Positions 6,791 through 47,994 are shown, numbered from the stretch's first letter. The stretch: 64,000 nt of DNA from Deltaproteobacteria bacterium (GCA_020059605.1 JAGVBT010000044.1:42554-106553), one strand, 5' to 3'. Numbers and translations: made by a program. The notes: a model not told the origin generated them from the sequence alone.

Positions 6791-6834
6791 CAACATCACC
6801 CTTCACAGCCTTCCACCGAAGACCTGTTGTGAAG

Positions 6835-7020
6835 TGCGTTCAGGCAGGTTTTCTGGCTTACGGATCATCCTAATCCCTGCCCCTTCCCATCCTTCGACCC
6901 TTCGATAAACTCAGGGCTCAGGACAGTGGTTGCCGGCAGGTTTCGTCCCCGATTACAGCGGCGTGGCCGTCCCCGATTTCCACGGGGTTCCCTTATTCTG
7001 GCTTGGCGCCACCTGAACGC
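6835..7020 (-). promoter_or_regulatory. Cobalamin (B12) riboswitch aptamer
   Basis: The minus-strand RNA reads GCGUUCAGGUGGCGCCAAGCCAGAAUAAGGGAACCCCGUGGAAAUCGGGGACGGCCACGCCGCUGUAAUCGGGG...CCACUGUCCUG...GGGAAGGGGCAGGG...AGCCAGAAAACCUGCCUGAACGC. This carries the conserved GGUG, AAGGGAA, GUGGAAAUC, CCGCUGUAA, CCACUG, GGGAAGG and B12-box GCCAGnnnACCUGCC elements. A 9-bp P1 stem (GCGUUCAGG/CCUGAACGC) closes the aptamer. Confidence 0.9.
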
Positions 7021-7155
7021 AGATCAATTGTTTATAAATTACCATAATATTCGGCTTAATGTCAAATTTATTGAGTTTACATTTAGCCTAAAATATTGTA
7101 GAAGGAAGATAATTGCAGGTTTTTTAGGGATGGCTTCACGGGAGAAGGAGGGCAT

Positions 7156-22400: not shown

Positions 22401-25400
22401 TTATTTGAGTTTAAAATCAACGCGGCTATCTTTCAGCTTTTCCTTCTTTGCCGGTGTAAGAGATTTTGGTTCAAGGATGAATATTCTCTCGGGTTCAACC
22501 GGCCCGGATGTTACGATGGCCTCCTTGACTTTCATGGCCCGCTGGGAAGCGAGGGCCCGCAGGTCACTCTCCCTGATCTCCAAATGCGTCAGAATCAACT
22601 TTTCCATTTCCGGGGCGGGGATGTCTTTGGCTATTCCCAGAATATTTCTCGGTTTTGGAAATTTCTCTTCCTTATAGGCCATCTTCAAATATTTTTCGTA
22701 TTCCTGTTTTTCGATTTTCACCTCATCCACTGGAATAGGAGGCTGTCCTTTCTTGACCATCTCTTTCAGTTTCTGGGCCTTCAATTTTCTGTCGAATAAA
22801 TACTGTTTCAACCATTCCCTGTCTTTCTCCGGATCCACATAACCCTCAATATCCATCTTGAGTTGAGGTCGATTGAGCAGAGCCTTTGCTATGGTCTCAA
22901 GTTTTTTAACACTCGGCTCGGTGAGGGTGGCGCTTCCGTATTCAAACTCCACGAAACTCAGTTCTTCTCCTCCTCCGATGATCGCCCCGAGGAGTGAAAA
23001 GGGCGAGGTGGCGGCCTTCGCTATCAGATTGATGAGGATCTTCAGGATGATTCCCCAAACGCTGAATTTCGGGTCATCCAGGCTTCCGGTGACCGGGATG
23101 TCCAGTTTGATTTCTCCTTTTCGATCCTTCAAAAGGGAGATGGCAAGTTTGACAGGCAACTTGGTCGCATGAGGGCTTTCCACCTTCTCTCCCAGGTTGA
23201 ACTGGTCAATGAAGATTTGATTCTGGGATTCGAGCTTTCTCTGTTTGATCAAATATTTCAAGTCGAATGAGAGCTTTCCCTTCTCGACGGTGTACCCGAC
23301 ATATTTCCCCGCATAAGGGGTCGTCGGACTGAGTTCCATATCCTTAAATCTCGCTTTCAGATCCACATAAAGGTCTTCTTTCAACGGATTGATCTTGCCG
23401 GTAATTTCGAGAGGGGCATAATCATCGAGTTTTGCACGAAGCTCCAAATCCGCCAGAGTGGTTTCCTCGGAAGAAAGACCGGAGATTCGTCCCCCGATCT
23501 CGGTCAGCTTTGCCGAATAATCGGGTTGAATGGATCGGTCTGAGAAGTCAACCCTCCCTCCCTGCAGGGTGATTGTTTCAATCTTGATCGTACTGGGGGG
23601 GTCTGCTGTTTTCTTCCCGGGCGAAGAAGGGGGGGCGCTTTCTTTGGAGGGACGTGTTTCTTGTTTTTTTTCTTCTTTCCCGATGAGTTGCTGGACATTG
23701 AGCAGGCCGTCCGGGTGGATGATCACTTGGGCATAGAAATCGCTTAATGAAATTCCTTTGATGTCCAATAAAAATGGATCGGAGTCGAAACGGAGATCAT
23801 CCAATGCCAGGGATTCCACTTTCAGGAAATCGGTGGCATGCTGTTTGTCAATGGAAGCAAAATGGGTCAGGGAGGCTTTCCCACGGTAGGTGGACTTAAG
23901 CTCTTTTTTATCTGAAAATTCCAGAGCAAGATTACCGTTGGTCGAAACGGCGCCACCGGTGACGTTCACCTTCACTCTGTCCGTAAAGTAGGCCTGAAGG
24001 GGCTTGATGCCAATCTCTTTCAAGCTCACTTTCAAATTTGCGGAGAGAGGGTTGATTCCGACCGCTCCCTCAGTTGAAATCGTGCCCTTTTGGTTGAACC
24101 GGAAGGAAAGGGCGGCATTTCCCTTTTGGCCTTTGGCTGTTGAGAAACGTTCGGCTCTTAGCCGCAATTCATCCATCACCAGCGCCACCGGCTCGGCGGG
24201 GGTTAGATCTTCACCGTTGATCGTATAATCATCCACTGAAACCTTTCCCACTTTGATCAGCCATGGTTTTTTTTCCGTTTTCTCCTGTACGGGTGCGAGC
24301 TTTTCCGCTGTTTTTTCTTCCTTTTTTTCACTTTCTGGGAAAAGGGACTGGAGGTTGATTTTCCCATCTTTAAAGCGACGGACGGAGAGTGTCCCTTTTT
24401 GAGTTGAAACATCCCCGACAGCAACCTCTTTTTGATTCAGATCCAATCCGGTGTTGTTGATCGTCAGCAGGGGAATATCCGCGAAGGCTTCCTCTTCATC
24501 CCTTTTTTTTAATTTCAAGCCTTTGAATGAGGCCGAAAGACCCGAGAGCTTGGTGATAATGTCTTTCCCTGTTTTTCGGTATTGATAGTTGGTAAAAAAG
24601 TCGAGGTCTCCCCCATCGATATTGAAGAGGATGCTATCCTGATAGTAAGGGGCGTATTTATTTAAGACGATACGTTTGATCTCTAAGGAGCCTTCGATTC
24701 TCAAAGGGTCAAGGCCAATCGTGTTTTGGGTGGAAAGGACGCTTGTCTGGTCCAGCAGGAATGAAAGGGATAATTTCCCAAGGGCATTTTGGGCAGTGGA
24801 TATATTTTCACCCTTGAGGGTAATCTTTTCTCCGATCAGGACAGTGGGTTGTTGGGGGGCTTGGTCTCTCATGTTGACTGCATATTGATCAACGGAGATT
24901 TTTCTCAGGGCCACCACCCATTTTTTTTCTTCTCCCTTCCCTTTGCTCTGCACAGGAGACGATTTCTCAGGGGGAGAAGGAGGGAAGAGCTTCATCAAAT
25001 CGAGGTCCCCGTTTTTTAAGCGGGTTAAGGTCAGCACCCCCTTTTCCGTTGAGAAGGTCCCGATCGTCACTTGTGTCTGGGTCACATCCACGAGGGTATC
25101 TTTGACCGAAAGAAGAGGTATTTTAAGGAAATCTTCTTTTTCCTCCGGCCTTTTAAGCCTTAAGGAATTCAAAAGGACGGACATTGCCGACAAAGAAATT
25201 TCAGGTTCTTTCTCTCCCCTGGCATATTTGTAACGGGTTGAGAAGTCCAAGCGACCTTCCTCAAGGGTAAAAAGAATTTGATCCTGATAATAGGGTGAAT
25301 ATTTCATCAGAGGGATAGACCTGATCTCCAAATTGCCCTCTGCCCACAAAGGCTCTACGGAAAGCTCGCCCTCCACTTTGATATTTTCCTTGGCCTCAGA

Positions 25401-26645
25401 CGCAATGGAAAGGGAATAGTTAGTTTTTTTGCCTTTGCCGTTGCTGAAAGGAGCAACCCTTAATTCAATGGGGGCCAGGGTCGTCTTAAAAGGTTTCTTT
25501 GTTGACAAATCCGAAAATGAGACCTTTCCGCCAATCAACTGCACCTCATCAATATCAAGGGATAGGGTGGCCTGATCTTCCTTTTTTTCGGCCGCGGGGG
25601 GAGGCTGGGTTTCTTTCTTTTTAGGGAGTAACGATTCAATGTTCAAAGCTCCTTCCGGATTTCGCCTTACGTTAAGTTCGGGAGACTGAAGGGAGACCCT
25701 TGACAGATGAAAGACCATCTTGAGGGGTTCTGTCGGGGCAATTTCGATTTCAAGCAGAGGAAGCCTGAATAAAGGATTTTTCTTACCATCGTCCAGTGCC
25801 ACTTTTTTCAAGGAGACATTTCCTGTCATAGTCAAGGTAGGCTGTTCCTCTTTAGGCTGGATAAACGAAACCTTTGTCTGGACATCAAGAAAGGCGGAGA
25901 CGATCTTGAAATTTAATTTAACAGGAAGGTAGGCCAGGTAATGGGGGATATCCAGGTTCTGAATATGGATGTCAAAAACTGTCTCGAGGGTGTCGCGAAA
26001 AGGTTTTGTATTCCCTTCAAGCCGATAAGGGGTTTCGTTAATCTTGGCGAAAAAGGTGGGTTGAACAAAGATGTCAATATGAGAGGGAATATTGGATAAG
26101 AAAGGAACCCCGATATTCAACTCTTTTACAGTATGCTTGGTCTGTTTGGGACCATCCCAAAAATCGATGCTTCCGCTTTCGATAATGATGTTATTAAGGG
26201 AGAACCGGAGAGGTTTTGGTTTTTCCGTCGGCTTCTCCGGCGGGTGGGTCTCCTTTTTTTCGAGCAGGTCATCAAAATTATAGGACCCGTCTTCATCGCG
26301 ATGGATTCTGATGTAAGGCTGTTTTAACCTGATCTCTTTAAGAATGAGCGCCATTCTCAGGGCGGAAAGGCTCTGGAGGTTTAAGAAAAGCTCATCGAAG
26401 GATAAAAAAGGTTCCGGACGTCCGTGGTCCTTCACCTGAAATCCTCTGATGGTTAAAGAAAGGGTATAGGGGTTTGCCTTGATTTGAGTGATCGCCACCT
26501 CGCGATGGAGGTTTTCCGAAAGTTTCTTGGTCAAGATCGATTTGAGAATTGGGGGAAGGATCAAAAAACCGAAGAGGGTATAGACCGCTAAAGAAATGAT
26601 GACCCAGACGATCGTCTTTTTCAACCGTTTCATATATCCCCCCAC
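22401..26645 (-). CDS. DUF748/AsmA-like giant envelope protein (1414 aa)
   Basis: An N-terminal TM anchor, a long beta-rich body and an internal duplication (...[27 protein letters not shown]... versus ...[27 protein letters not shown]...) are typical of the AsmA/TamB-like lipid-transfer superfamily. Confidence 0.6.
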
Positions 26646-36083: not shown

Positions 36084-37034
36084 GTGAAATTGCAGGAAGC
36101 CTTTCGAGAGATTCAATGCCTTAAAAAGAGAGTCCGATCCCTTACCAAAGAGATTGAATCCATCAGGGGGATCTCGATAGAAGGGCCGTCTCCCGTGGAG
36201 GGGTTGCTTAGGATGAGAGGGATTCGGGTCTTCAGAAAAAATCCCGGCGATCGGCTCTTCTTCCCTTCCGACCTATCCGGATCCTGTCAAACCCGATTCT
36301 ATGAGATGATGAAGAGGTACTCCTTCCGGCTCGTGCTCCGGGATATGATCAAGAACCAGGATGGGTTTCGCATCCGGGATTTGACCCACTACTGCTCTTC
36401 AGAAGTCGTCCGGCGGTATTGTCAGATTCTCTGTGATATGGGAGTGATCATAAAGAGCGGAAGGGCGAGTTACCGGACCGGCGTCAGGCCCCTTTACAGT
36501 TTCGGGCCGACCTTAGAGTGGTTCATTGCCGAGATGTTTAAAAGGGAGTTCGCTTCCCCTGCCCTTTATGGAGTGAGCGTGAAGAAGACCCGCTCCGGCG
36601 GAGATTACGATGTAATGGGCTCCTGGAATCAGAGACTGGTCTATGCGGAGGTGAAGTCCTCCCCTCCCAAAGGGGTTGAACAGGCTGAGATCTCCACCTT
36701 CTTCTCAAGGCTGGAAGACCTCTTGCCCGATGTGGCCATCCTCTTCAATGATACTCAATTGAGGATGAAGGATAAACTGGTGGTGATGTTTGAGGAGGCA
36801 CTGAGCCGAAGATATGGAGAGGAGTCGAAAAAGCTTTATGCTGTGGAGAGGCTGATCGGAGAACTCTTCCATATCCAGCACCGTATCTTCATCGTCAACA
36901 GCAAAAAAGATGTGGCGGAAAATTTTGGGATCTGCCTCAGGGATTATCTGAGACACGGAACCCCTTCTCCCTCTTCTCGCCCCGTTGGGGTGGTGTCACA
37001 ATTAACCGTTCGCCCTGAGGTTCTCGAAGGGTGA
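36084..37034 (+). CDS. Hypothetical protein, with a predicted winged-helix domain followed by a PD-(D/E)xK-like motif
   Basis: GTG start overlapping the PflX stop. A coiled-coil N-terminus and a wHTH-like segment (RFYEMMKRYSFRLVLRDMIKNQDGFRIRDL) are present. GGDYDVMGSWNQRLVYAEVKS fits a D...E-x-K nuclease core. The last roughly 25 codons are encoded by dispersed repeats. Confidence 0.4.
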   Translation: MKLQEAFREIQCLKKRVRSLTKEIESIRGISIEGPSPVEGLLRMRGIRVFRKNPGDRLFFPSDLSGSCQTRFYEMMKRYSFRLVLRDMIKNQDGFRIRDLTHYCSSEVVRRYCQILCDMGVIIKSGRASYRTGVRPLYSFGPTLEWFIAEMFKREFASPALYGVSVKKTRSGGDYDVMGSWNQRLVYAEVKSSPPKGVEQAEISTFFSRLEDLLPDVAILFNDTQLRMKDKLVVMFEEALSRRYGEESKKLYAVERLIGELFHIQHRIFIVNSKKDVAENFGICLRDYLRHGTPSPSSRPVGVVSQLTVRPEVLEG

Positions 37035-38955: not shown

Positions 38956-39234
38956 CTAAAGCCTCTTTATATATCGATCTGCCTCTTTTTTGCTGATAAC
39001 CCTGAGGATGACGATTTTCATAGACTGAATTTCGAAGAAGGCCCGAAACTTATCAATTCTCAGTCTGTAAAAAGTAGTCTTTTTACCTTTAATCTTCTTG
39101 ATCAATTTTCCCCTTGGGAAAGGGTTTTCTTTAAGGATCTTTAAATCCGAAACTACTTTTGTAACGATCCCCATTCCCAAATCATCCAGGTCCCTTGAGG
39201 CTGCCGGTGAGAGTTCGATCTTGAACCTATCCAT
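38956..39234 (-). CDS. RelE/ParE-family type II toxin
   Basis: 92 aa with the ...FYRLRIDKFRAFFEIQSMKIVILRV... RelE-like C-terminal pattern. It overlaps the upstream antitoxin. Confidence 0.65.
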   Translation of the reverse strand: MDRFKIELSPAASRDLDDLGMGIVTKVVSDLKILKENPFPRGKLIKKIKGKKTTFYRLRIDKFRAFFEIQSMKIVILRVISKKEADRYIKRL

Positions 39235-39490
39235 GCTTTGACTTTCTCTTTTTCAGATATTCATCGATTTCTATACCGCCAAGCTCCAGATATTCCTCTC
39301 TCGCTTTCTCCAGGGCGGCCTGAAACCTGGGATTGTTTTCAAGTAAGTAGTCTTCAAAATCGTCCTCTGAAATGCCTTTGATAATAGCCGTCGGTTTTCC
39401 CCTGGAGGTTACAACGACCTCCTCCTTTTCAGCCACTTTCAAAATTTCCGAAGTTTTGTTCTTAAGTTCCCTGACATTTGCAAATCTCAT
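39227..39490 (-). CDS. Phd/YefM-family antitoxin
   Basis: 87 aa with the Phd-like N-terminus MRFANVRELKNKTSEILKVAEKEEVVVTSRGKPTAII. There is an 8-nt overlap with the toxin gene. Confidence 0.7.
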   Translation of the reverse strand: MRFANVRELKNKTSEILKVAEKEEVVVTSRGKPTAIIKGISEDDFEDYLLENNPRFQAALEKAREEYLELGGIEIDEYLKKRKSKHG

Positions 39491-39772: not shown

Positions 39773-40705
39773 CTAAGATAAAAAATCTATGGCCAGCTTG
39801 TTGAACTTCTCCGGATACTCTTCGTGCGGGCTGTGTCCGGCCTTATCAAAGATCACCAATTTTGATCCATTCCAAAGACCATTTAATTTTTGTGACCGAT
39901 CTAAGGGAACGGCTTTATCCTCCCTACCGTGAATGATTAAGGTCGGTATGCTCATTTTGGACAAAAGGTTGGCTTCTTTTTCAACATACGGCTCTTTTAA
40001 GACATTACGTAGGATAAACATAAAACCAGCGGAAGATCCTTTGATACAAAGCGGCTGCAAGACTTCTTTACAATACTCCTCGGTTACCTTGTTTTTATCG
40101 TAGAACCATATCGTTTTAATATTGTTCTTCATCAAAGCATCTCCGGGAATGGCATTCATAAATTCACCAATAAAAGGGAACTGATAAATCTTGCCAATTG
40201 TCGTCATCGGCTGAGGGATAACGGTTGGGTCAACTAAAATAAGCCGATCAACCCTTCCGGGATGATGGGCAGCCACATAAACTGAAATCCCTCCACCCAT
40301 GGATTGTCCCACAAGAGTGGCTTTTTTGATATTCAGGGCATCCATGAATCCCACGATCTGTTTTCCATATCGTTCGAAGCTGTATTCCTTTTCCCCCAAT
40401 CTTTCGCTATACCCCCATCCCCAGAGGTCGATTGCGTAGACCTTAAATTTTTCGGCCAGGGCATCAATATTTTTCTTCCACATGACCGTATGATAGAGAA
40501 AGCCATGAATCAGTATGATGGGCGGGCCATTCCCGGCTTCCACATAGTGGACCTTTTTGCCATCTACGGTGACAAATTTCCCCTTGGCAAATTTTTGGAC
40601 AGCTTCCTCATAGGTACAGGTTTCTTTAGATGTCAATTGTGGGAGAATGATGATGAATAATACCAATGCGCCGACGATAATTAATAATGTGATGAATAAT
40701 TTCAT
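39773..40705 (-). CDS. Alpha/beta hydrolase-fold protein, membrane-anchored or secreted
   Basis: An N-terminal TM or signal segment and the nucleophile elbow GQSMGGG are present. The segment is AT-rich. Confidence 0.75.
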   Translation of the reverse strand: MKLFITLLIIVGALVLFIIILPQLTSKETCTYEEAVQKFAKGKFVTVDGKKVHYVEAGNGPPIILIHGFLYHTVMWKKNIDALAEKFKVYAIDLWGWGYSERLGEKEYSFERYGKQIVGFMDALNIKKATLVGQSMGGGISVYVAAHHPGRVDRLILVDPTVIPQPMTTIGKIYQFPFIGEFMNAIPGDALMKNNIKTIWFYDKNKVTEEYCKEVLQPLCIKGSSAGFMFILRNVLKEPYVEKEANLLSKMSIPTLIIHGREDKAVPLDRSQKLNGLWNGSKLVIFDKAGHSPHEEYPEKFNKLAIDFLS

Positions 40706-40916: not shown

Positions 40917-40955
40917 TTACTATGGCTTTGCCGAGATTCTCATGTTAATTGGCAC
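40917..40955 (-). pseudogene. Degraded duplicate of the 3' end of the cyclase-STAND gene (fragment 1)
   Basis: The reverse complement encodes HENLGKAI..., matching the C-terminus of the 42476..45844 product ([14 protein letters not shown]...). Confidence 0.6.
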
Positions 40956-41031
40956 CTGTCTTTAATCCCATATTTGACAATTGTTACAAATGGGATTATC
41001 ATTGTAAACAAAACAAATTGGAGAAATCGAC

Positions 41032-41307
41032 ATGGCTGAAACTAAAATCTTGAAAACAGATTCGAGGGGACGAGTCGTTCTCCCTCCTCCTTTTCGAAGG
41101 GAATCTTTGTTCGAATATGCCGTTAAGGGTGATCAGATCATCCTCTATCCAGTCCGGACAGTCCGAAGATACCCCGATATGTCAGACCTGCCTGAAGAGG
41201 TTCTCTCCCCGGATTGGGTTGAAAGAGAGAAGAAAATTAATGCAGATACGCGACCCGGAATCGTTGCTCCAACCCCTTCAAAGGCGCTCAGAAAAAAGAA
41301 GAAATGA
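41032..41307 (+). CDS. AbrB/MazE/SpoVT-family antitoxin
   Basis: KILKTDSRGRVVLPPPFRRE is a swapped-hairpin motif. It is followed 6 nt later by the toxin gene. Confidence 0.6.
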   Translation: MAETKILKTDSRGRVVLPPPFRRESLFEYAVKGDQIILYPVRTVRRYPDMSDLPEEVLSPDWVEREKKINADTRPGIVAPTPSKALRKKKK

Positions 41308-41313
41308 CTTTCT

Positions 41314-41625
41314 ATGCCAGCGAAACCATTTCTCTTTGAACTCCACTTCGAAATCATCTTCTTGGAAAGCTATTCCCATTTGAAACCGGGTGAACAAAAA
41401 GCGATTGATAAAGCGGTCAGGTTTCTCAGTGCAAATCCTCGACATCCATCCCTCAATGTTCATAAGGGGAAAAACGTCAAAGGAAAGTATGCCGAGGGAG
41501 GAAATGATGTCTTCATCGCATATGCTTCGAAAAGTTTAAGACTCACCTTTGAATACGGTCCTCAACCGGGCATGATCGCCCTACGCAATTGTGGGCATCA
41601 TGAATCATGCGAAAGAAAAATGTGA
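41314..41625 (+). CDS. RelE/ParE-superfamily toxin (probable)
   Basis: 103 aa. The pattern ...KGKNVKGKY...DVFIAY..SLRLTFEY is RelE-like. It pairs with the AbrB-like gene. Confidence 0.45.
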   Translation: MPAKPFLFELHFEIIFLESYSHLKPGEQKAIDKAVRFLSANPRHPSLNVHKGKNVKGKYAEGGNDVFIAYASKSLRLTFEYGPQPGMIALRNCGHHESCERKM

Positions 41626-41649: not shown

Positions 41650-41760
41650 GGCTAACATTTCTTTTTCATATTTTTCGACCCAGCCGTCGGCGCCGCATTC
41701 TTTCAAGATTTCTATGGCTTTGCCGAGATTCTCATGTAGATTGGAACCCTTCTTTAATTT
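41650..41760 (-). pseudogene. Degraded duplicate of the 3' end of the cyclase-STAND gene (fragment 2, with its own stop)
   Basis: The reverse complement encodes ...[38 protein letters not shown]. The authentic end is ...[32 protein letters not shown]. The identical run TCGACCCAGCCGTCGGCGCCGCATTCTTT starts the copy here (41673-41701) and at 42510-42538. Confidence 0.75.
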
Positions 41761-41801: not shown

Positions 41802-42122
41802 GTGATTAAGCCAGACCCCTCTCTTGAGCCCGATTGGGATGAGGACAATATTGACCATATTGCCGAACATGGTCTTCGGCCGGAACAGGTTGAAGAAGTC
41901 TATTATGGTGAAGGGCCATTTCCTACTCTCGCTCTTAAAACTAAAAAACAAAAGGGTCGAGTTGCCGAGTATCGTTATCGGTTATGGGGGACTGATGCAT
42001 CGGGAATGTATATCGAAGCCATTATTGCCCCATACCCTGAATTTAGGCTTTGGAGGTGTGTTACCGCATTCCCCATGTCACCCTCCACACAGAAAGCCTA
42101 TTTAAGGAGAATCAAAAAATGA
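41802..42122 (+). CDS. BrnT-family (DUF497) ribonuclease toxin
   Basis: 106 aa. ...WDEDNIDHIAEHGLRPEQVEEV... is the BrnT pattern. Confidence 0.6.
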   Translation: MIKPDPSLEPDWDEDNIDHIAEHGLRPEQVEEVYYGEGPFPTLALKTKKQKGRVAEYRYRLWGTDASGMYIEAIIAPYPEFRLWRCVTAFPMSPSTQKAYLRRIKK

Positions 42123-42406
42123 AGAAAATTCCTCTCAAAATCAAAAAGAAGCTAAAAAGCGAGGCTAAAACATGGGATTCTTCTATTTCTCAAGAGAAGC
42201 CCAAAGAGGTATCCAGGCTGATCGAAAAAGCAGATTTATTTGTCGCCTACCGGCCTCCTCGGCAACCCGTTTCAGTGCGCTTAGATCCCTTCGACCTTGC
42301 ATTATTAAAGCGGATTGCCCGTAATAAAGGACTCCCTTTCACCCAGCTTATGTCCATGTGGCTGCACGAAAAAGTTGAGCAGGAGAAAACCAGAGTCGGA
42401 GCTTAA
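42119..42406 (+). CDS. BrnA-family antitoxin
   Basis: The start is at ATG 42119, with an ATGA overlap on the BrnT stop. The C-terminal RHH-like ...VSVRLDPFDLALLKRIARNKGLPFTQLMSMWL is present. Confidence 0.55.
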   Translation: MKKIPLKIKKKLKSEAKTWDSSISQEKPKEVSRLIEKADLFVAYRPPRQPVSVRLDPFDLALLKRIARNKGLPFTQLMSMWLHEKVEQEKTRVGA

Positions 42407-42475: not shown

Positions 42476-45400
42476 TCACAAAGGCTGAGCCAATACTTTC
42501 TCGTACTTCTCGACCCAGCCGTCGGCGCCGCATTCTTTGAGAATCTCTATGGCCTTGCCGAGATTCTCCTGGGCTTTTAATCTATCCCCTTTTCGTTTAA
42601 ACAACTCTGCATAAAGAGCATAATCATTTCCCAGGTGGAACATCGTTCGATTTCTCTGATCGGCTTCAATGGCCTTCTGAATCCAATACTCTGCTTCAGA
42701 TAAGTGCTGGTCATCAATGTTAAGCAGAATCTCTCCGATAAGTCTTTGCATCCCACCTTCGGCTGCCTTTACTTTATTGTTTCGTGAATGCACATACAAA
42801 GATTCCAAATCCACACCCTTTTCTTTATTCATCACTTTCGATCTTGCTATAGCAACTCTTCCCCACCCCACCCAGGAAGGCCATAAACGATTGCGCTCGA
42901 AAGCCGAAATCCCTTTTTCGAAACGTTCTTTAGAGCCCTGGAAATTTCCCATTTCAAAATAGGTATCTCCCAGGTGATATTGGTTTCCCGCATCCCAGCC
43001 AGAAATATTAATCTTTTCACAAAATTCGAACCCCTTCAGCAGGTATTTTTCAGCTTCTTCAAGCAATCCTTTCCCATAGCAGGAAGTTCCGTGACTTGAA
43101 TATGCTATTGCCTTTGAATAAATATCACCGCTCTCTTCAGCAATCTGGAGGCCTTCATTCGAAGTCTTGAATTGCAGATCTATTCTCCCATGGTACCAAT
43201 GAGAAAAATAGGCCAAATTACTCATCGTTACCGCAATGCCCCAAAAATTTTTTGCTGCCACATTAATATCAATAGCTCTTTGTGAAAATTTAATTGCTCT
43301 TTCAAATTCGCAGTTCGCCCCTAAAGCATATCCAAACCAGCTACTTGCTAAAACTAAACTAACAATATCTTTTATCTCTTCCGATATTTTTAGGGCTTCC
43401 TCAAATGCTTTAAATGCCTCTGGATAATTTTCTTCTCCAGACCAATAGTATGTTCCGAGAATCATGTATATGTGAGAAAGTCTCCTTTTATAATCACGTT
43501 TGATGGCCAAATCAATAATTGGATCTATGGCTTCTTTGGCCTCAACAAAATGGTTCATTTGAGCGATATAAAGTCCAAGAACCGTCCTGGCATCGACAAT
43601 CTGTTTTTCAATATTCGCTGCCTGGGTTAATCGCTCAAGAGATGCTATTCTCGTCTTTGCATAAGCAATCGCATCATTAAACGAAGCTGTCTTCTCGGCC
43701 CTCCTGCTTGCCAACCTCGAATACTCAGCGCATTTTGAATAATTCTCACTCAAGAGGTAGTGTCCGGATAATACTTCATAACATTCACTTAAATTATCCT
43801 TGTAAAGTTCCTCGATATTGTTCCCAATCTCCTCATGAAGTTTCTTCTTCCTTTTGGCCAAGATGGAATTATAAACCACCTCACGAGTTAAAGCGTGTTT
43901 GAAGACATAATTCGATTGAGGGTATATGCCTCTTTCATAAAGAAGTTCTGAGTCTTTAAGGATAGAAAGGTAAGAGAGCAGGTCTTTTTCTGGGAGGCCC
44001 ATAATGCGGTTTATCAATGGATAACTAAACTCTCTCTCAATGACAGACCCGCTTTGGAGCACCTCTTTTGCCCTCTCAGGTAAGGAATCTACTCTTGCCA
44101 TAATCACATCCTGGAGTGTTAAAGGAATGGTCAGCTCATGGATATCTTTTGATAAACGAAATTTGTTATCTTCTCTCTCTATGATTCTTAATTCTCTCAG
44201 GGACTGTATAAACTCTTCAATGAAAAAAGGGACTCCTTCTGTCTTCTCCAGGATCAATTCCTCAAGTGATTTTTCAATCTCTTTTGTCCCTAAAATATGG
44301 GTTGCCATCTCAAGGCTCTCCCTATTCGAGAGCCGATGCAACGTTAATTGATTGTGATAAGACTTTGCGCCCCAGGTGTGTAAAAACTCAGGCCGGTAGG
44401 TAAATATTAATAACACCCTTGCTCCCGGGATGCTCTCCAAATTGTTTCTTAATACGTCCTCTGAACTCTTATCCAGCCAGTGCAGGTCTTCAAATGCCAT
44501 CACCAGAGGCCGTATCTCAGACCCTCTAAGAATGATCCGTTTTATTGATTCAATAATCCTATCTTTCTTTGATTCAGGGCTCATGGAAATCTGTTCGATC
44601 CCACTATCCTTGACTGAGAGAAGCTCAAGGAGATATGGGAGAGTCGAGGCTTCATCGACTCCTATTAATCTCAACCCTCTTGTGACTTTTTCTTTGATTT
44701 CCTGGTCCCCTTCTCCTTCATGAATATCGAAGTTTGACTTCAGGATGTCTATCACCGGGTGATAAGCTACCCCCCTGCTGTAGGAGAGGCATTTCCCTTC
44801 CAAAAAGGTTACATTTTCGTTGACTATTGCCTTCCTGAATTCATACAAAAGCCTCGATTTACCACAACCGGCCTCAGATACAATAGAAAACGCCTGGCCC
44901 TTTCCTGATTTGGCTCTCGTAAATCCATCGAGCAGAAGCTCAAGCTCACGTTCCCTTCCAACAAAGGGAGTCAGCCCGCGCTCAGCACTGACATCAAATC
45001 TTGTCCTTCTCGTGCTGGGAGCGATCACCTGAAAAACCTTTATGGGTTCTTCCTTGCCCTTAACATTTTTTTTCCCCAAAGCCTCAAACCTAAAAAACCC
45101 CTCCGTGAGTTTGAAGGTATCTTCGGTCACATAGGTTGTTCCTGGTTCTGCCAAGCCTTCCATTCGGGATGATAGATTCACCGTATCTCCAACCGCCTTG
45201 AACTCAACCCGAAGATCATTACCCAAGCTACCCACCACCACAGGACCTGTGTGAATACCAATACGCATCTTAATTGGCGTTATTCTGCTTTCGATTTTGA
45301 GCTGATCGCTGAACTTGCTCATCTCCCGATGGATGGTTAATGCAGATCGAATTGCACGCTGTGGAGCGTCCTCCAGAGCAATCGGCGCCCCAAAAAGAGC

Positions 45401-45844
45401 CACAATCCCATCACCGGTTAATTCGTTGACAGTCCCTTCATAATCATGGACCTTGTGGATGAGGATTTCGTAAACCTGATCCATCATGGAGTAAGCTTCC
45501 TCAGGACCGAGCTTTTCGGTAAGTCCCGTATACCCCTCCATGTCACAGAACATCACCGTGACCTGTTTGCGTTCACCTTCAATTCGGTCGCGTTGAGATA
45601 AGATTTTTTCGGTTAGACCCCCGGGAAGGTATTTTTGAATCTTGGCTATCTTCTCATCAAAGGAAAGTTCTCTGGTGAGCGGTTTTGAAGGAAGGGTTAA
45701 GTCGTGGCCACACTCACCACAGAATTTGAATTGAGGAGGGTTTGAAGAATTGCAATGGGGACAGATCTTTTCTAATTTGGCACCACACTCCCCACAAAAC
45801 TTCAAGTTTTCGGGATTTTCAGTCTGACATTTTGGGCATTTCAC
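42476..45844 (-). CDS. Multidomain signalling protein: double zinc ribbon, class III adenylate/guanylate cyclase, STAND-type AAA ATPase and TPR repeats
   Basis: The N-terminal CPKCQ...CGECG / CPHCN...CGECG is a double zinc ribbon. The cyclase core has [10 protein letters not shown]...[11 protein letters not shown]...[10 protein letters not shown]. The Walker A is [11 protein letters not shown]. The C-terminal roughly 450 aa are TPR-like. The gene is AT-rich. Confidence 0.8.
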
Positions 45845-45983
45845 TCTTTTCCCCCTTCAATTGCATGATACTAAATAAATTGGGTGCCCCTAATTTTATT
45901 CGGCTGGCGGAAGGGTCTTCATCCGAAACGCCTTGCTCTATAGGTTTCCAGCACTGAAAAGATAGTCATCCTTGATACGTTCC

Positions 45984-47378
45984 TCATCGATTAGCATCTG
46001 TTCCATGAGCAGGCATACCCAAAAACTCACCCGTGATGCGTAGCACAGCATCCGCATCACCAAAGAAAGGCATATGAATACTTCCTTCTAATGGAACGAA
46101 GCGAGAGTTTGGAATCAAAGATGCCATCTCCCTCCCAAGATGGAATGGCATAGCCTTGCAACCCTTACGATGAATCACCAATGTAGGAACATGTAATCTG
46201 GGGAGAAGGTCTGTCACATCAAGGTCATATGTAAGATCTAACAATTTTGCAGCCATTTCTGCAGTAGCTGCCTCACGCTGTAAACGGATAACCCATTTGA
46301 GGGTAGAAACATCAGCGCCGGGTAAGAACATATCAGCCAAGGCCTTAGAACCAACTCCCCAGGCAGAACGAATCAGGGATGTAAAAGACTCCTTGAATTC
46401 CTTTGTAGTTATTGCCTCACCATTAGCATAAGAATCGAATAAGATTAAATGTGAAACACGTCTTGGATACTTAATTGCATAAGCGATGGCAACAGGACCA
46501 CCACAAGAAAATCCACACAATGCGAAACGTTTGAGCTTAAGATGGTCAATAACAGCCTCCAATGACCGAACCTCCGACTCTAATGTAAATTCTGTTCTGT
46601 TCCGTTCAGAAAGGCCACAGCCGTGTCTATCGTAAAGTACAAAGGTTTGATTACGAGTTCCTTTCTCTAAGTATTCACGTGTAAATGGATGTTCCCATTG
46701 TAACTGTAAATGACTGACCCATGCCGGAGGAAAAACCAAAAATGGTCCTTGGCCTACCACGGAGTAAGCGATGCGGACTCCATCAACGGTAGTGCAGAAT
46801 TGAATATGCTGGTCTATCACCTCCGCTGGAGAAAAAGTTCCACGCCCTATCAATACTCGATAAACCCTCACCGGCTTTGCAATATTCTTAACCGTTTGTT
46901 CGCCAAGATTCTCATAGCTTAACCCAAGTTTACCCTCAACTTGATCATAAGCTGTTCCTGAGATGCAGATCCCTCCGCCATTGGCCAGGCTCTGAACCCG
47001 AGCGGTGACATTGACTCCGTCACCGTAGATCCGCTCCCCTTCCTCAACAACATCTCCAAGATTGATCCCGATTCGAAATTCCATCCTGCTCTTTTCAGGT
47101 AGCTCAGCATTCTTTAGTTTGAGTTCCTTTTGGATTTCCACTGCACATTGCACAGCCTCTACGACACTAACAAATTCAGCTAAAAGATTATCTCCAGGGG
47201 AATCTACGACGCGCCCTTTGTGCTGTCTGATGAAGTTGGCCATGATTTCTCTATAAGTGGTTAGAGTCCGGATGGTCTCAATTTCATTCTCCTCCATGAG
47301 GCGGCTGTAACCTTTAACATCTGCACTGAAAATGGCAGCAAGCTTACGTTTAACCTCTTGGCTGTTCATGAAATTCAC
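45984..47378 (-). CDS. Class III adenylate/guanylate cyclase fused to an alpha/beta hydrolase domain
   Basis: The cyclase core has FSADVKGYSRLM...GDNLLAEF...RIGINLGDVV. The hydrolase part has GFSCGG (GxSxG) and downstream catalytic residues. Confidence 0.75.
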   Translation of the reverse strand: MNFMNSQEVKRKLAAIFSADVKGYSRLMEENEIETIRTLTTYREIMANFIRQHKGRVVDSPGDNLLAEFVSVVEAVQCAVEIQKELKLKNAELPEKSRMEFRIGINLGDVVEEGERIYGDGVNVTARVQSLANGGGICISGTAYDQVEGKLGLSYENLGEQTVKNIAKPVRVYRVLIGRGTFSPAEVIDQHIQFCTTVDGVRIAYSVVGQGPFLVFPPAWVSHLQLQWEHPFTREYLEKGTRNQTFVLYDRHGCGLSERNRTEFTLESEVRSLEAVIDHLKLKRFALCGFSCGGPVAIAYAIKYPRRVSHLILFDSYANGEAITTKEFKESFTSLIRSAWGVGSKALADMFLPGADVSTLKWVIRLQREAATAEMAAKLLDLTYDLDVTDLLPRLHVPTLVIHRKGCKAMPFHLGREMASLIPNSRFVPLEGSIHMPFFGDADAVLRITGEFLGMPAHGTDANR

Positions 47379-47559
47379 CCTCTAAAGGTTCTTAGGTTGG
47401 AAGAAGAGAACGCTGAAGAAAATATGAATCCGTCCTCAGTTGTGAATGATATAGGTTTATCGAGATGATCCACCTAACAGAACAAGAGGTTCTATTAAGT
47501 GGCAGATAGGCACATTTTGAGGCTCTTTCTCATTTAGAATACTGTGGTAACGGTGTCCA

Positions 47560-47994
47560 TTACTGAATTACTGACCCTGTCTCAGCTTTTCGAAAATACT
47601 GGCAGAGGGAGATCAGGATCTTTCTCTGGAGGCCCGGAACCGTATCAAGCAAATGGTCAAAAGATTTGCTGTTTACGATCAACAGGGTCATATCAGTTTC
47701 AGCAATGACCGTTGCGGTTCGGGGGCCCCTGTCAATGAGGGAGACCTCGCCAAAAAAGTCGCCTGAAGCCAGACGGTTTATCACCTTACCGCCTTTCTCG
47801 ACTCGGGTTTTACCCTCTAAGATGAAAACGAATTCCCATCCCATATCCCCCTGCTCGGCCAGGACCTTGCCAGCTTTGACCGACAACTGATCTGCATACT
47901 TGGCAATCTCGTTCAGATGGCGGTTGCTAAGATTACTAAACATGGGTACCTTTTTAAGGAGTTCGACCTTTTCGGAACGCCGGCGGAGTAGCAT
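47560..47994 (-). CDS. Standalone cyclic-nucleotide-binding domain protein
   Basis: 144 aa. The CAP-like cNMP pocket is ...FGEVSLIDRGPRTATVIA.... There is no output domain. Confidence 0.7.
   Translation of the reverse strand: MLLRRRSEKVELLKKVPMFSNLSNRHLNEIAKYADQLSVKAGKVLAEQGDMGWEFVFILEGKTRVEKGGKVINRLASGDFFGEVSLIDRGPRTATVIAETDMTLLIVNSKSFDHLLDTVPGLQRKILISLCQYFRKAETGSVIQ

Follow-up and report, generated by a model that had tools for sequence, protein, structure and literature searches.

Class III nucleotidyl cyclases are active only as dimers, with their active sites at the interface, and bacterial guanylyl cyclases are regarded as rare. In STAND nucleoside triphosphatases (NTPases) of the MalT type, the established mechanism runs from ligand binding at a repeat sensor through nucleotide exchange to oligomerisation. 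Here we describe three neighboring genes of a Deltaproteobacteria bacterium, one of which joins a class III cyclase to a STAND NTPase and a tetratricopeptide repeat (TPR) array. The genes occupy positions 42476-47994 of a 64,000-nucleotide (nt) stretch (GCA_020059605.1 JAGVBT010000044.1:42554-106553), called the window below and numbered from its own first letter. They encode a 1122-amino-acid (aa) double zinc ribbon/cyclase/STAND/TPR protein (the giant), a second cyclase fused to an alpha/beta hydrolase (the fusion), and a 144-aa protein that binds cyclic nucleoside monophosphates (cNMPs). With a probability of roughly 55%, we read the locus as a chromosomal cyclic-nucleotide (cGMP) signalling cluster and not as a defence system.

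Judged by analogy, the closest characterised counterparts are Rv0386 of Mycobacterium tuberculosis and the XC_0250/XC_0249 pair of Xanthomonas campestris. As described, Rv0386, Rv1358 and Rv2488c resemble the giant in placing an N-terminal class III cyclase before a MalT-type P-loop STAND ATPase, and Rv0386 also has a TPR array and a length of ~1100 aa. The Rv0386 group has a LuxR DNA-binding domain; the giant has no LuxR domain but carries an N-terminal double zinc ribbon. The base-specifying pair of that group is Gln/Asn, with guanylyl side activity (bioRxiv 10.1101/2024.03.06.583649), and the Glu/Lys pair of the giant is likewise non-canonical. XC_0250, a cyclase-plus-TPR protein of 886 aa, makes cGMP and not cAMP, and its gene adjoins that of the cNMP-binding receptor XC_0249 (PMC3770947). 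Compared at the domain level, this is the same cyclase-receptor logic as in the window. The Asn/Arg pair that the giant keeps is missing from XC_0250, which has Ala at one of its substrate positions; XC_0249 carries a GGDEF output domain, and the 144-aa receptor has none.

Domain content and predicted nucleotide specificity

The minus strand of 42476-47994 holds three open reading frames (ORFs), placed as in an initial annotation of this DNA, with the following features.

47560..47994, minus strand: cNMP-binding protein, 144 aa (Pfam cNMP_binding)
45984..47369, minus strand: cyclase/alpha/beta-hydrolase fusion, 461 aa, within a 464-aa ORF at 45984-47378 (Pfam Guanylate_cyc and Abhydrolase_1/6)
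42476..45844, minus strand: giant, 1122 aa (Pfam DZR, Guanylate_cyc, AAA_16 and TPR models)
45707..45844, minus strand: double zinc ribbon of the giant, aa 1-46, four CxxC pairs (Pfam DZR)
45041..45571, minus strand: class III cyclase domain of the giant, aa 92-268 (Pfam Guanylate_cyc)
44408..44968, minus strand: AAA_16 STAND NTPase core of the giant, aa 293-479 (Pfam AAA_16)
42479..44407, minus strand: winged-helix/arm region and TPR sensor superhelix of the giant, aa 480-1122 (hhalign against MalT)

All key Pfam matches of the three proteins exceed the gathering cut-offs, and the domains are therefore not chance matches. The giant matches DZR at aa 3-46 (E 5e-12), Guanylate_cyc (PF00211) at aa 92-268 (E 1e-24, 87.5 bits versus a cut-off of 21.9), AAA_16 at aa 293-479 (E 2e-22, 80.7 bits versus 32.6), and TPR_12 and other TPR models from ~aa 730 to 1114. 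The fusion, in the numbering of the 464-aa ORF, matches Guanylate_cyc at aa 15-171 (E 3e-12, 47 bits versus 21.9) and Abhydrolase_1/6 at aa 214-446 (E 2e-15). The 144-aa protein matches cNMP_binding (PF00027) at aa 38-118 (E 1e-18, 67.6 bits versus 27.5), with no second domain and no HTH_Crp match in Pfam. These matches confirm the initial annotation in its description of the giant, of a cyclase fused to an alpha/beta hydrolase, and of an upstream protein that is a bare cNMP-binding domain. The fusion most likely starts at the ATG at 47369, a start that yields the 461 aa also seen in its database twin P0121 and in nearly all homologues; a GTG at 47378 would extend the ORF.

Conservation of the giant was counted across 118 full-length homologues (77-100% identity), in which the cyclase and the NTPase are the most conserved regions. 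All eight zinc-ribbon Cys are kept wherever the residue is present (Cys3 and Cys6 fall in a gap in 3/118 sequences). Variation in the giant is highest in the loops that separate the Cys pairs, and within the TPR region it peaks at aa 800-1000. Metal-binding D101 and D145 and transition-state N223 and R227 occur in 118/118 homologues, and the base-specifying positions are nearly as constant (E141 in 115/118, K216 in 117/118). Residues were mapped by alignment to the solved cyclases Cya2, Cya2 E488K, CYG12 (E/C), CyaC (K/T) and CyaB. E141 corresponds to Glu488 of Cya2 (2w01), to the Lys engineered in E488K (6fht) and to the Glu of CYG12, while K216 aligns with the Cys of CYG12 (3et6), the Gly of Cya2 and the Thr of the adenylyl cyclases CyaC and CyaB. 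Foldseek supports membership in class III, with TM scores of ~0.75-0.8 to CyaB, CyaC and Cya2.

For the fusion, comparison by alignment with Ma1120 (K101/D157) and its mutants and with 3mr7 identified metal-binding D17 and D60, transition-state N120 and R124, and the base-specifying pair D56/R113 (461-aa numbering). All six positions of the giant and the fusion share the same columns in a joint alignment. Across the fusion family, the first base position is Asp in 82/90 sequences that align over the cyclase domain, and the second is Arg, Lys or Gln. On checking, the metal-binding Asp pair and the Asn/Arg residues thus proved intact in both cyclases, and from these residues both are predicted to be active.

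The ATP-specific pair (Lys, then Asp or Thr/Ser) is absent from both proteins. In place of the adenylyl-type Lys/Asp, each has a charge-swapped (acid, base) pair, Glu141/Lys216 in the giant and Asp56/Arg113 in the fusion. By the guanylyl criterion of Glu at the first base position, the giant has Glu and the fusion Asp. A single change at this position, E488K, converts Cya2 from a guanylyl to an adenylyl cyclase (PMC5995499), and guanylyl cyclases have Glu first and C/S/T/H/A/G second (PMC4215837). The product of PfPucC, from the Pucsar defence system, is 3',5'-cGMP, and in an AlphaFold 3 model its Glu118/Lys195, at the same two positions, lie on the guanine Watson-Crick edge (bioRxiv 10.64898/2026.08.12.744502). 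Because Glu/Lys is the pair reported for this cGMP-forming enzyme, we predict cGMP, not cAMP, as the most likely product. The housekeeping cAMP signalling considered in the initial annotation probably named the wrong nucleotide, as the Lys/Asp adenine pair is missing in both cyclases.

The same signalling cluster could instead produce cAMP, another cNMP or a mixture through relaxed specificity, with Rv0386 (Gln/Asn) as the model case, and we regard this as unlikely but worth weighing. Databases label the proteins "class 3 adenylate cyclase". Two residues are an unreliable guide to specificity: swaps in Ma1120 mainly cut activity (PMC4215837). The M. tuberculosis cyclase-ATPases are described as combining adenylyl with guanylyl side activity in a Gln/Asn-dependent manner (bioRxiv 10.1101/2024.03.06.583649). 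The best 150 representatives among same-architecture relatives also vary at these positions (Q/T 72, E/K 23, K/T 11). On the other hand, the adenine-type Lys is replaced by an acidic residue that is kept in 115/118 giants and 82/90 fusions, a Lys-to-Glu exchange at this position is the known adenylyl/guanylyl switch (PMC5995499), and the E/K pair occurs in a cyclase shown to produce cGMP (bioRxiv 10.64898/2026.08.12.744502).

Tandem arrays of giants in relatives, whose loci are given L numbers here, mix base-specifying pairs. One E/K and four Q/T copies lie in L015 (1-19368), four E/T copies in L019 (6580-21452), and an E/S cyclase, a Q/T giant and an E/K giant in L084 (9944-16432). This mixing hints that neighboring paralogs may differ in nucleotide specificity.

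The STAND NTPase, its proposed gating and the predicted receptor gene

The initial annotation had likened the giant to Avs/NLR-like defence ATPases. The domain order agrees with that likeness, but profile searches do not extend it. Over aa 280-748, AAA_16 is the sole Pfam family at E<=10, with no NACHT and no NB-ARC. At E<=0.01, PADLOC returned only PycC matches to the cyclase domain of the giant and no Avs, NACHT or other STAND defence model. The Walker A motif (G-C-G-K329-S) and the Walker B motif (hhhhED, E452-D453) are invariant among the 118 homologues.

We compared a profile of 42 diverse relatives with Escherichia coli MalT using hhalign. The two align over 491 columns (probability 81.6%, E 1.1e-5), collinearly from the winged helix through the sensor (profile columns 584-1107 versus MalT 260-763). 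The diverse profile was needed, as a shallow alignment was uninformative against MalT (probability 8%). The 42-sequence profile also matches the TPR regions of AfsR (E 3e-18) and of the archaeal STAND-TPR protein PH0952 (E 5e-18). Pfam TPR_MalT scores 24 bits on the giant, below its cut-off of 45, and Pfam finds no LuxR/GerE or other helix-turn-helix domain, the C-terminus consisting of TPRs. The best NCBIfam match is TIGR03903 (349 bits over aa 88-926, cut-off 705.75). Sequence profiles thus place the giant with signal-transduction STAND proteins of the MalT/AfsR kind.

In the mechanism that we propose, the giant would be a MalT-type STAND signal transducer with a class III cyclase as its output domain. 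A ligand or partner at the TPR superhelix would release autoinhibition and allow nucleotide exchange on the AAA_16 NTPase, and oligomerisation of the giant would pair two cyclase domains. Glu141/Lys216 would then select GTP as substrate and give 3',5'-cGMP as product. The fusion, with its analogous Asp/Arg pair, would be a second input to the same messenger pool. The 144-aa protein would read or buffer the messenger and, having no output domain, would have to act through protein contacts.

The hydrolase domain of the fusion retains an invariant Ser288 (in GFSCG) and His432. Where 83/105 homologues have Asp as the usual triad acid, this copy has Cys404, although another acid could substitute. 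In the proposed mechanism the hydrolase-fold domain would more likely be a sensor, perhaps of a ligand, than an efficient enzyme.

The 144-aa protein scores 22 bits against NCBIfam CRP (cut-off 266). Its phosphate-binding cassette, F81-G82-E83 ... R92-T93-A94-T95, is intact and is kept in nearly all of 120 homologues of 142-144 aa (69-99% identical). This CAP-family protein is predicted to be a receptor or buffer for the messenger. Its PADLOC match to PycTIR extends over model positions 30-139 of 288 and so takes in no more than the binding domain.

The order panB-M50-cNMP-cyclase/hydrolase-giant is orthologous in L023, L020 and L012. Elsewhere, more distant relatives have a 143-aa receptor family (69-91% identical) with a cyclase directly downstream or at most two genes away (L080, L082, L084, L086). 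The downstream genes encode a giant in L080, a hydrolase-cyclase in L082, a FIST protein, a cyclase and two giants in L084, and a giant, a cyclase/hydrolase and another giant in L086. The receptor loci of L080, L082 and L086 lie between CorA or DUF6982 and ligA-mraZ; L084 has the CorA/DUF6982 side, its fetched stretch ending inside the giants before any ligA-mraZ.

Just upstream of the 143-aa receptor gene, these relatives recurrently have a gene for a CorA magnesium channel, a 133-aa DUF6982 gene or both (L080 7436-7837; L082 3076-4616; L084 6670-7734; L086 1347-2411), at the place where the window has the M50 peptidase. We considered the peptidase as a part of the module and rejected it: it stands at the locus only in the closest relatives, with CorA or DUF6982 in its place elsewhere.

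A further possibility is that the three genes are mere neighbors, with the giant one of many independent paralogs and its position functionally meaningless. Some 80% of giant loci lack a cNMP-binding gene in the surrounding 5 kb. Such genes are modestly enriched (12 in 393 kb near giants versus 3 in 264 kb), and some of the loci behind the first count were fetched through the receptor itself. The spacers between the three genes are ~100-190 nt, so that coupling is not tight, and promoter and terminator scans of the cluster gave chance-level results only. We nonetheless hold a meaningless position to be quite improbable. Seen from the receptor side the link is consistent, with a class III cyclase after every receptor-family gene looked up on long contigs, and the full trio recurs in L086 even though the fusion there is only 59% identical.

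Other cNMP-binding proteins, physiological readers of cNMPs, also stand beside members of these families. Between two giants in L011 (3826-5742, plus strand) lies a gene for a 639-aa protein with an N-terminal cNMP-binding domain and a Na+/sulfate (SLC13-type) symporter, likely a cNMP-gated transporter in a sulfate-reducer lineage. A protein with TPRs and two cyclic nucleotide-binding domains (TPR-2xCNB) adjoins a giant in L071, and a Crp-type regulator adjoins a cyclase/hydrolase orthologue in L085.

Family, neighborhood and the question of defence

More than 120 database clusters (built at 90% identity) are nearly the same length as the giant and 77-86% identical to it, one of them labelled Syntrophaceae. 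In a 50%-identity library, 25,264 representatives match it at E<=1e-30, many with its complete architecture down to the zinc ribbon. Scanning one genome per species revealed copies in Syntrophaceae, Desulfobacterales, Desulfatiglandales and other Thermodesulfobacteriota, and the host of the window itself looks like a Syntrophaceae-like, sulfate-reducer-like member of this phylum. Several copies often occur in a single metagenome-assembled genome, with tandem arrays of seven in L015, four in L019 and three in L002. More distant full-length relatives (33-37% identity) reside on Cupriavidus and Burkholderia replicons, some annotated as adenylate/guanylate cyclase domain proteins and others without annotation, and shorter matches lie on many rhizobial plasmids. 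No full-length relative of the architecture was found in 50,697 phage records. Identity between paralogs of one array is 77-78%, whereas the window copy and one copy from a different genome reach 85%. As cross-genome orthologues are more alike than paralogs within an array, the sequences indicate that the paralogs are old and each maintained.

On one side, the cluster is flanked by genes for an M50 peptidase, panB, panE and a PFOR-like oxidoreductase; on the other lie PolX, a radical-SAM protein, a major facilitator superfamily transporter, an AMP-binding-domain enzyme and PriA (all by Pfam). Between PolX and the giant are a 310-aa alpha/beta hydrolase gene and three toxin-antitoxin-like pairs, together with remnants of another giant.

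39773..40705, minus strand: 310-aa alpha/beta hydrolase with a hydrophobic N-terminus (Pfam Abhydrolase_1, E 1e-35)
41656..41754, minus strand: relic of the 3' end of a second giant, last ~32 codons plus stop (tblastn, blastn)
40917-40966: further giant fragment of 50 nt, near the relic at 41656-41754
38956-39490, minus strand: ParE/Phd pair (above Pfam cut-offs)
41032-41625, plus strand: MazE/AbrB-like and ParE-like pair (below Pfam cut-offs)
41802-42406, plus strand: BrnT-like and CopG/BrnA-like pair (below Pfam cut-offs)

The relic at 41656-41754 is 77% identical to aa 1084-1118 of the giant in tblastn. In blastn it matches the intact gene's 3' end at 82% identity and that of the L002/L003 giant abutting the hydrolase gene at up to 95%. 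Upstream of it the reading frame is broken by stops. The two relic pieces are split by a toxin-antitoxin pair and lie upstream of the 310-aa hydrolase gene. An 85% identical orthologue of this hydrolase begins 12 nt after the stop codon of a giant in Syntrophaceae UBA2188 (L002, on the same contig as L003), and the hydrolase possibly belongs to the cyclase array. The locus has thus undergone remodelling, and the relic indicates that one copy was lost from a former tandem array next to the hydrolase gene. Since the relic pieces sit between toxin-antitoxin pairs beside the hydrolase, the cassettes seem to have established themselves in a degenerating stretch of the array. Unrelated ParE/Phd pairs also adjoin giant loci in L080 and L086.

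The G+C content falls to 0.41-0.46 over ~38-48 kb of the window, versus 0.50-0.53 in the flanks. Giants run at ~0.42-0.43 in 5/6 sampled relatives (the exception, L084, is at 0.47), a more distant copy in L047 is at 0.49, and the genes flanking giants in sampled relatives are at ~0.44 to 0.49. As most relatives share the low value, the dip is not necessarily a recent insertion, and it may reflect family composition or old exchange among relatives. Recent horizontal acquisition, as one might infer from the low G+C, was considered and rejected as unproven: family G+C is low in most relatives irrespective of host background, the window has no tRNA, and no integrase or transposase occurs among the ORFs scanned with Pfam in about 28-55 kb. 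Of the acquired island next to toxin-antitoxin cassettes that the initial annotation described, the cassettes are present (three pairs, one of them clear), and the acquired status is not borne out by these observations.

Elsewhere in the window, a cobalamin riboswitch lies at 6826-7031 on the minus strand (Rfam RF00174, 101.9 bits, E 2e-24). A 1414-aa AsmA/DUF748 protein, probably involved in envelope lipid transport, is encoded at 22401-26645 on the minus strand (DUF748, 1285 bits). Between the radical-SAM gene and PolX, a 316-aa ORF at 36084-37034 on the plus strand has no Pfam match at E<=1e-5.

Several points weigh against our reading of the cluster as cGMP signalling. The second base-specifying residues, Lys in the giant and Arg in the fusion, fall outside the classical guanylyl list of C/S/T/H/A/G (PMC4215837), the PucC base contacts were read from an AlphaFold 3 model reported in a preprint, and no characterised precedent was found for the Asp/Arg pair of the fusion. 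The NTPase core itself has no significant hhalign alignment to MalT. Our AlphaFold2 model of the giant (53 sequences, 77-85% identity) has a mean pLDDT of 67, falling below 50 for most of aa 480-660; it is poor for aa 1-660 and confident only for aa 660-1120, all helical repeats. With only the TPR half confident, the model is not usable to classify the NTPase. Foldseek of the model returned cyclases, generic TPR proteins and, at rank 39, PH0952, and a single-sequence phmmer search of aa 280-1122 against PDB sequences returned generic TPR proteins only. At only ~9 of ~50 giant loci with enough flank is a cNMP-binding gene found within 5 kb, so that most giants would operate with no receptor gene alongside; the case for a functional link is recurrent adjacency.

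The tandem arrays of up to seven copies, the more variable TPR stretch at aa 800-1000, the low G+C and the nearby toxin-antitoxin genes also fit a conflict system. In such an anti-phage system, the giant would be an Avs/NLR-like receptor whose TPRs bind an invader protein, and oligomerisation would switch on the cyclase so that a cyclic nucleotide reaches a downstream effector, as in Pycsar/Pucsar. The tripartite effector-STAND-repeat layout is that expected of such a receptor. The E/K pair is the same as in the defence cyclase PucC, and the PucC preprint also reports STAND NTPase fusions of cyclases as an "immune clade 1" (bioRxiv 10.64898/2026.08.12.744502). PADLOC PycC models match the cyclase domains, and PycTIR models match the cNMP-binding protein.

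We nevertheless consider defence a distinctly improbable function. The PADLOC matches are limited to the shared cyclase and cNMP-binding domains, and the fusions in the preprint are to NACHT and AP-ATPase modules, whereas the giant has AAA_16 with a MalT-type arm and sensor. Pfam detects no TIR, pore-forming or nuclease effector in the module, and the cNMP-binding protein is without an output domain. The solved cyclases closest to the giant are the physiological CyaB and Cya2 (E 1e-26), compared with E 1.5e-4 for the cytidylate cyclase 8jsf. The giant cyclase evolves slowly, and its orthologues are more alike than its paralogs, while immune cyclases are reported to have long branches (bioRxiv 10.64898/2026.08.12.744502). 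Among 149 proteins encoded within 5 kb of giants at ~28 loci, PADLOC found four cNMP-domain matches and otherwise scattered singles, with no enrichment of defence genes. One of these neighbors matches the PycTM/2TM models (E 8e-19 to 1e-16); a cNMP-domain search and a crude count of hydrophobic segments did not pin it to a protein or locus.

The conflict system entertained in the initial annotation is thus disfavored by the AAA_16/MalT-like STAND part, by the synteny of the locus in L023, L020 and L012, and by neighbors that are not enriched in defence genes. MalT collinearity sets the STAND part beside LuxR-type regulators in essence, and the recurring positions beside panB/M50 or CorA/ligA-mraZ speak for stable chromosomal loci. 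These findings fit chromosomal signalling.

A bolder extension, which we offer as speculation with little expectation of its being right, is that the giants make up a repertoire of the NLR kind. Each lineage would have dozens of stable paralogs that present different TPR surfaces to different intracellular ligands, possibly including proteins of invaders or partner organisms, and that report via cGMP to a shared small receptor. Neighboring paralogs with Q/T, E/T and K/T pairs would write other cyclic nucleotides, and some members could act in immunity. If so, the Thermodesulfobacteriota would be a large and overlooked source of bacterial guanylyl cyclases and of second-messenger synthesis gated by STAND proteins.

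Comparison with known signalling and defence systems

Like the fusion, LipJ (Rv1900c) combines a class III cyclase with an alpha/beta hydrolase, but the hydrolase of LipJ is N-terminal and the order in the fusion is reversed; the LipJ model NF058673 of NCBIfam scores 115.5 bits on the fusion versus a cut-off of 800. The best solved match of the fusion cyclase is the Ruegeria pomeroyi cyclase/hydrolase 3mr7 (E 8e-38), which carries the canonical Lys/Asp where the fusion has Asp/Arg.

Pucsar and Pycsar resemble the locus in the class III fold of PucC and PycC, in the Glu/Lys pair of PfPucC and in a cNMP-binding protein next door. PucC and PycC are small stand-alone cyclases from defence contexts, where their partners are cNMP-binding effectors of the TIR or membrane type, whereas here the cyclase is fused to a STAND-TPR scaffold in a syntenic housekeeping setting with no effector domain. 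Avs and bacterial NACHT proteins share with the giant an N-terminal effector, a STAND NTPase and a C-terminal repeat sensor; the giant differs in matching none of their profiles, in having no defence neighborhood and in its many conserved copies per genome. The layout of effector, STAND NTPase and repeats, even beside toxin-antitoxin genes, does not alone indicate defence.

The kinase/cyclase fusions of TOMM systems (TIGR03903) are homologous to the giant over the cyclase, the NTPase, the helical region and the first TPRs. The match is below the cut-off and starts at model position 281, so that the giant has no N-terminal kinase, and the biosynthesis genes of TOMM systems are absent near the giant.

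E. coli MalT, Streptomyces AfsR and Pyrococcus PH0952 share TPR-like sensors with the giant, and ligand-induced, nucleotide-dependent oligomerisation would be expected here as well. The output of the giant is an enzyme and not a DNA-binding domain as in MalT. The giant and its cluster belong to an already known type of signalling protein, and the point of wider interest is the predicted cGMP output of a very large STAND-gated cyclase family in Thermodesulfobacteriota. If Glu/Lys and Asp/Arg do specify GTP, this family would suggest widespread cGMP signalling in syntrophic and sulfate-reducing Deltaproteobacteria. The giants, if gated as proposed, would offer a tractable case of a STAND NTPase controlling an enzyme by induced proximity outside immunity and transcription.

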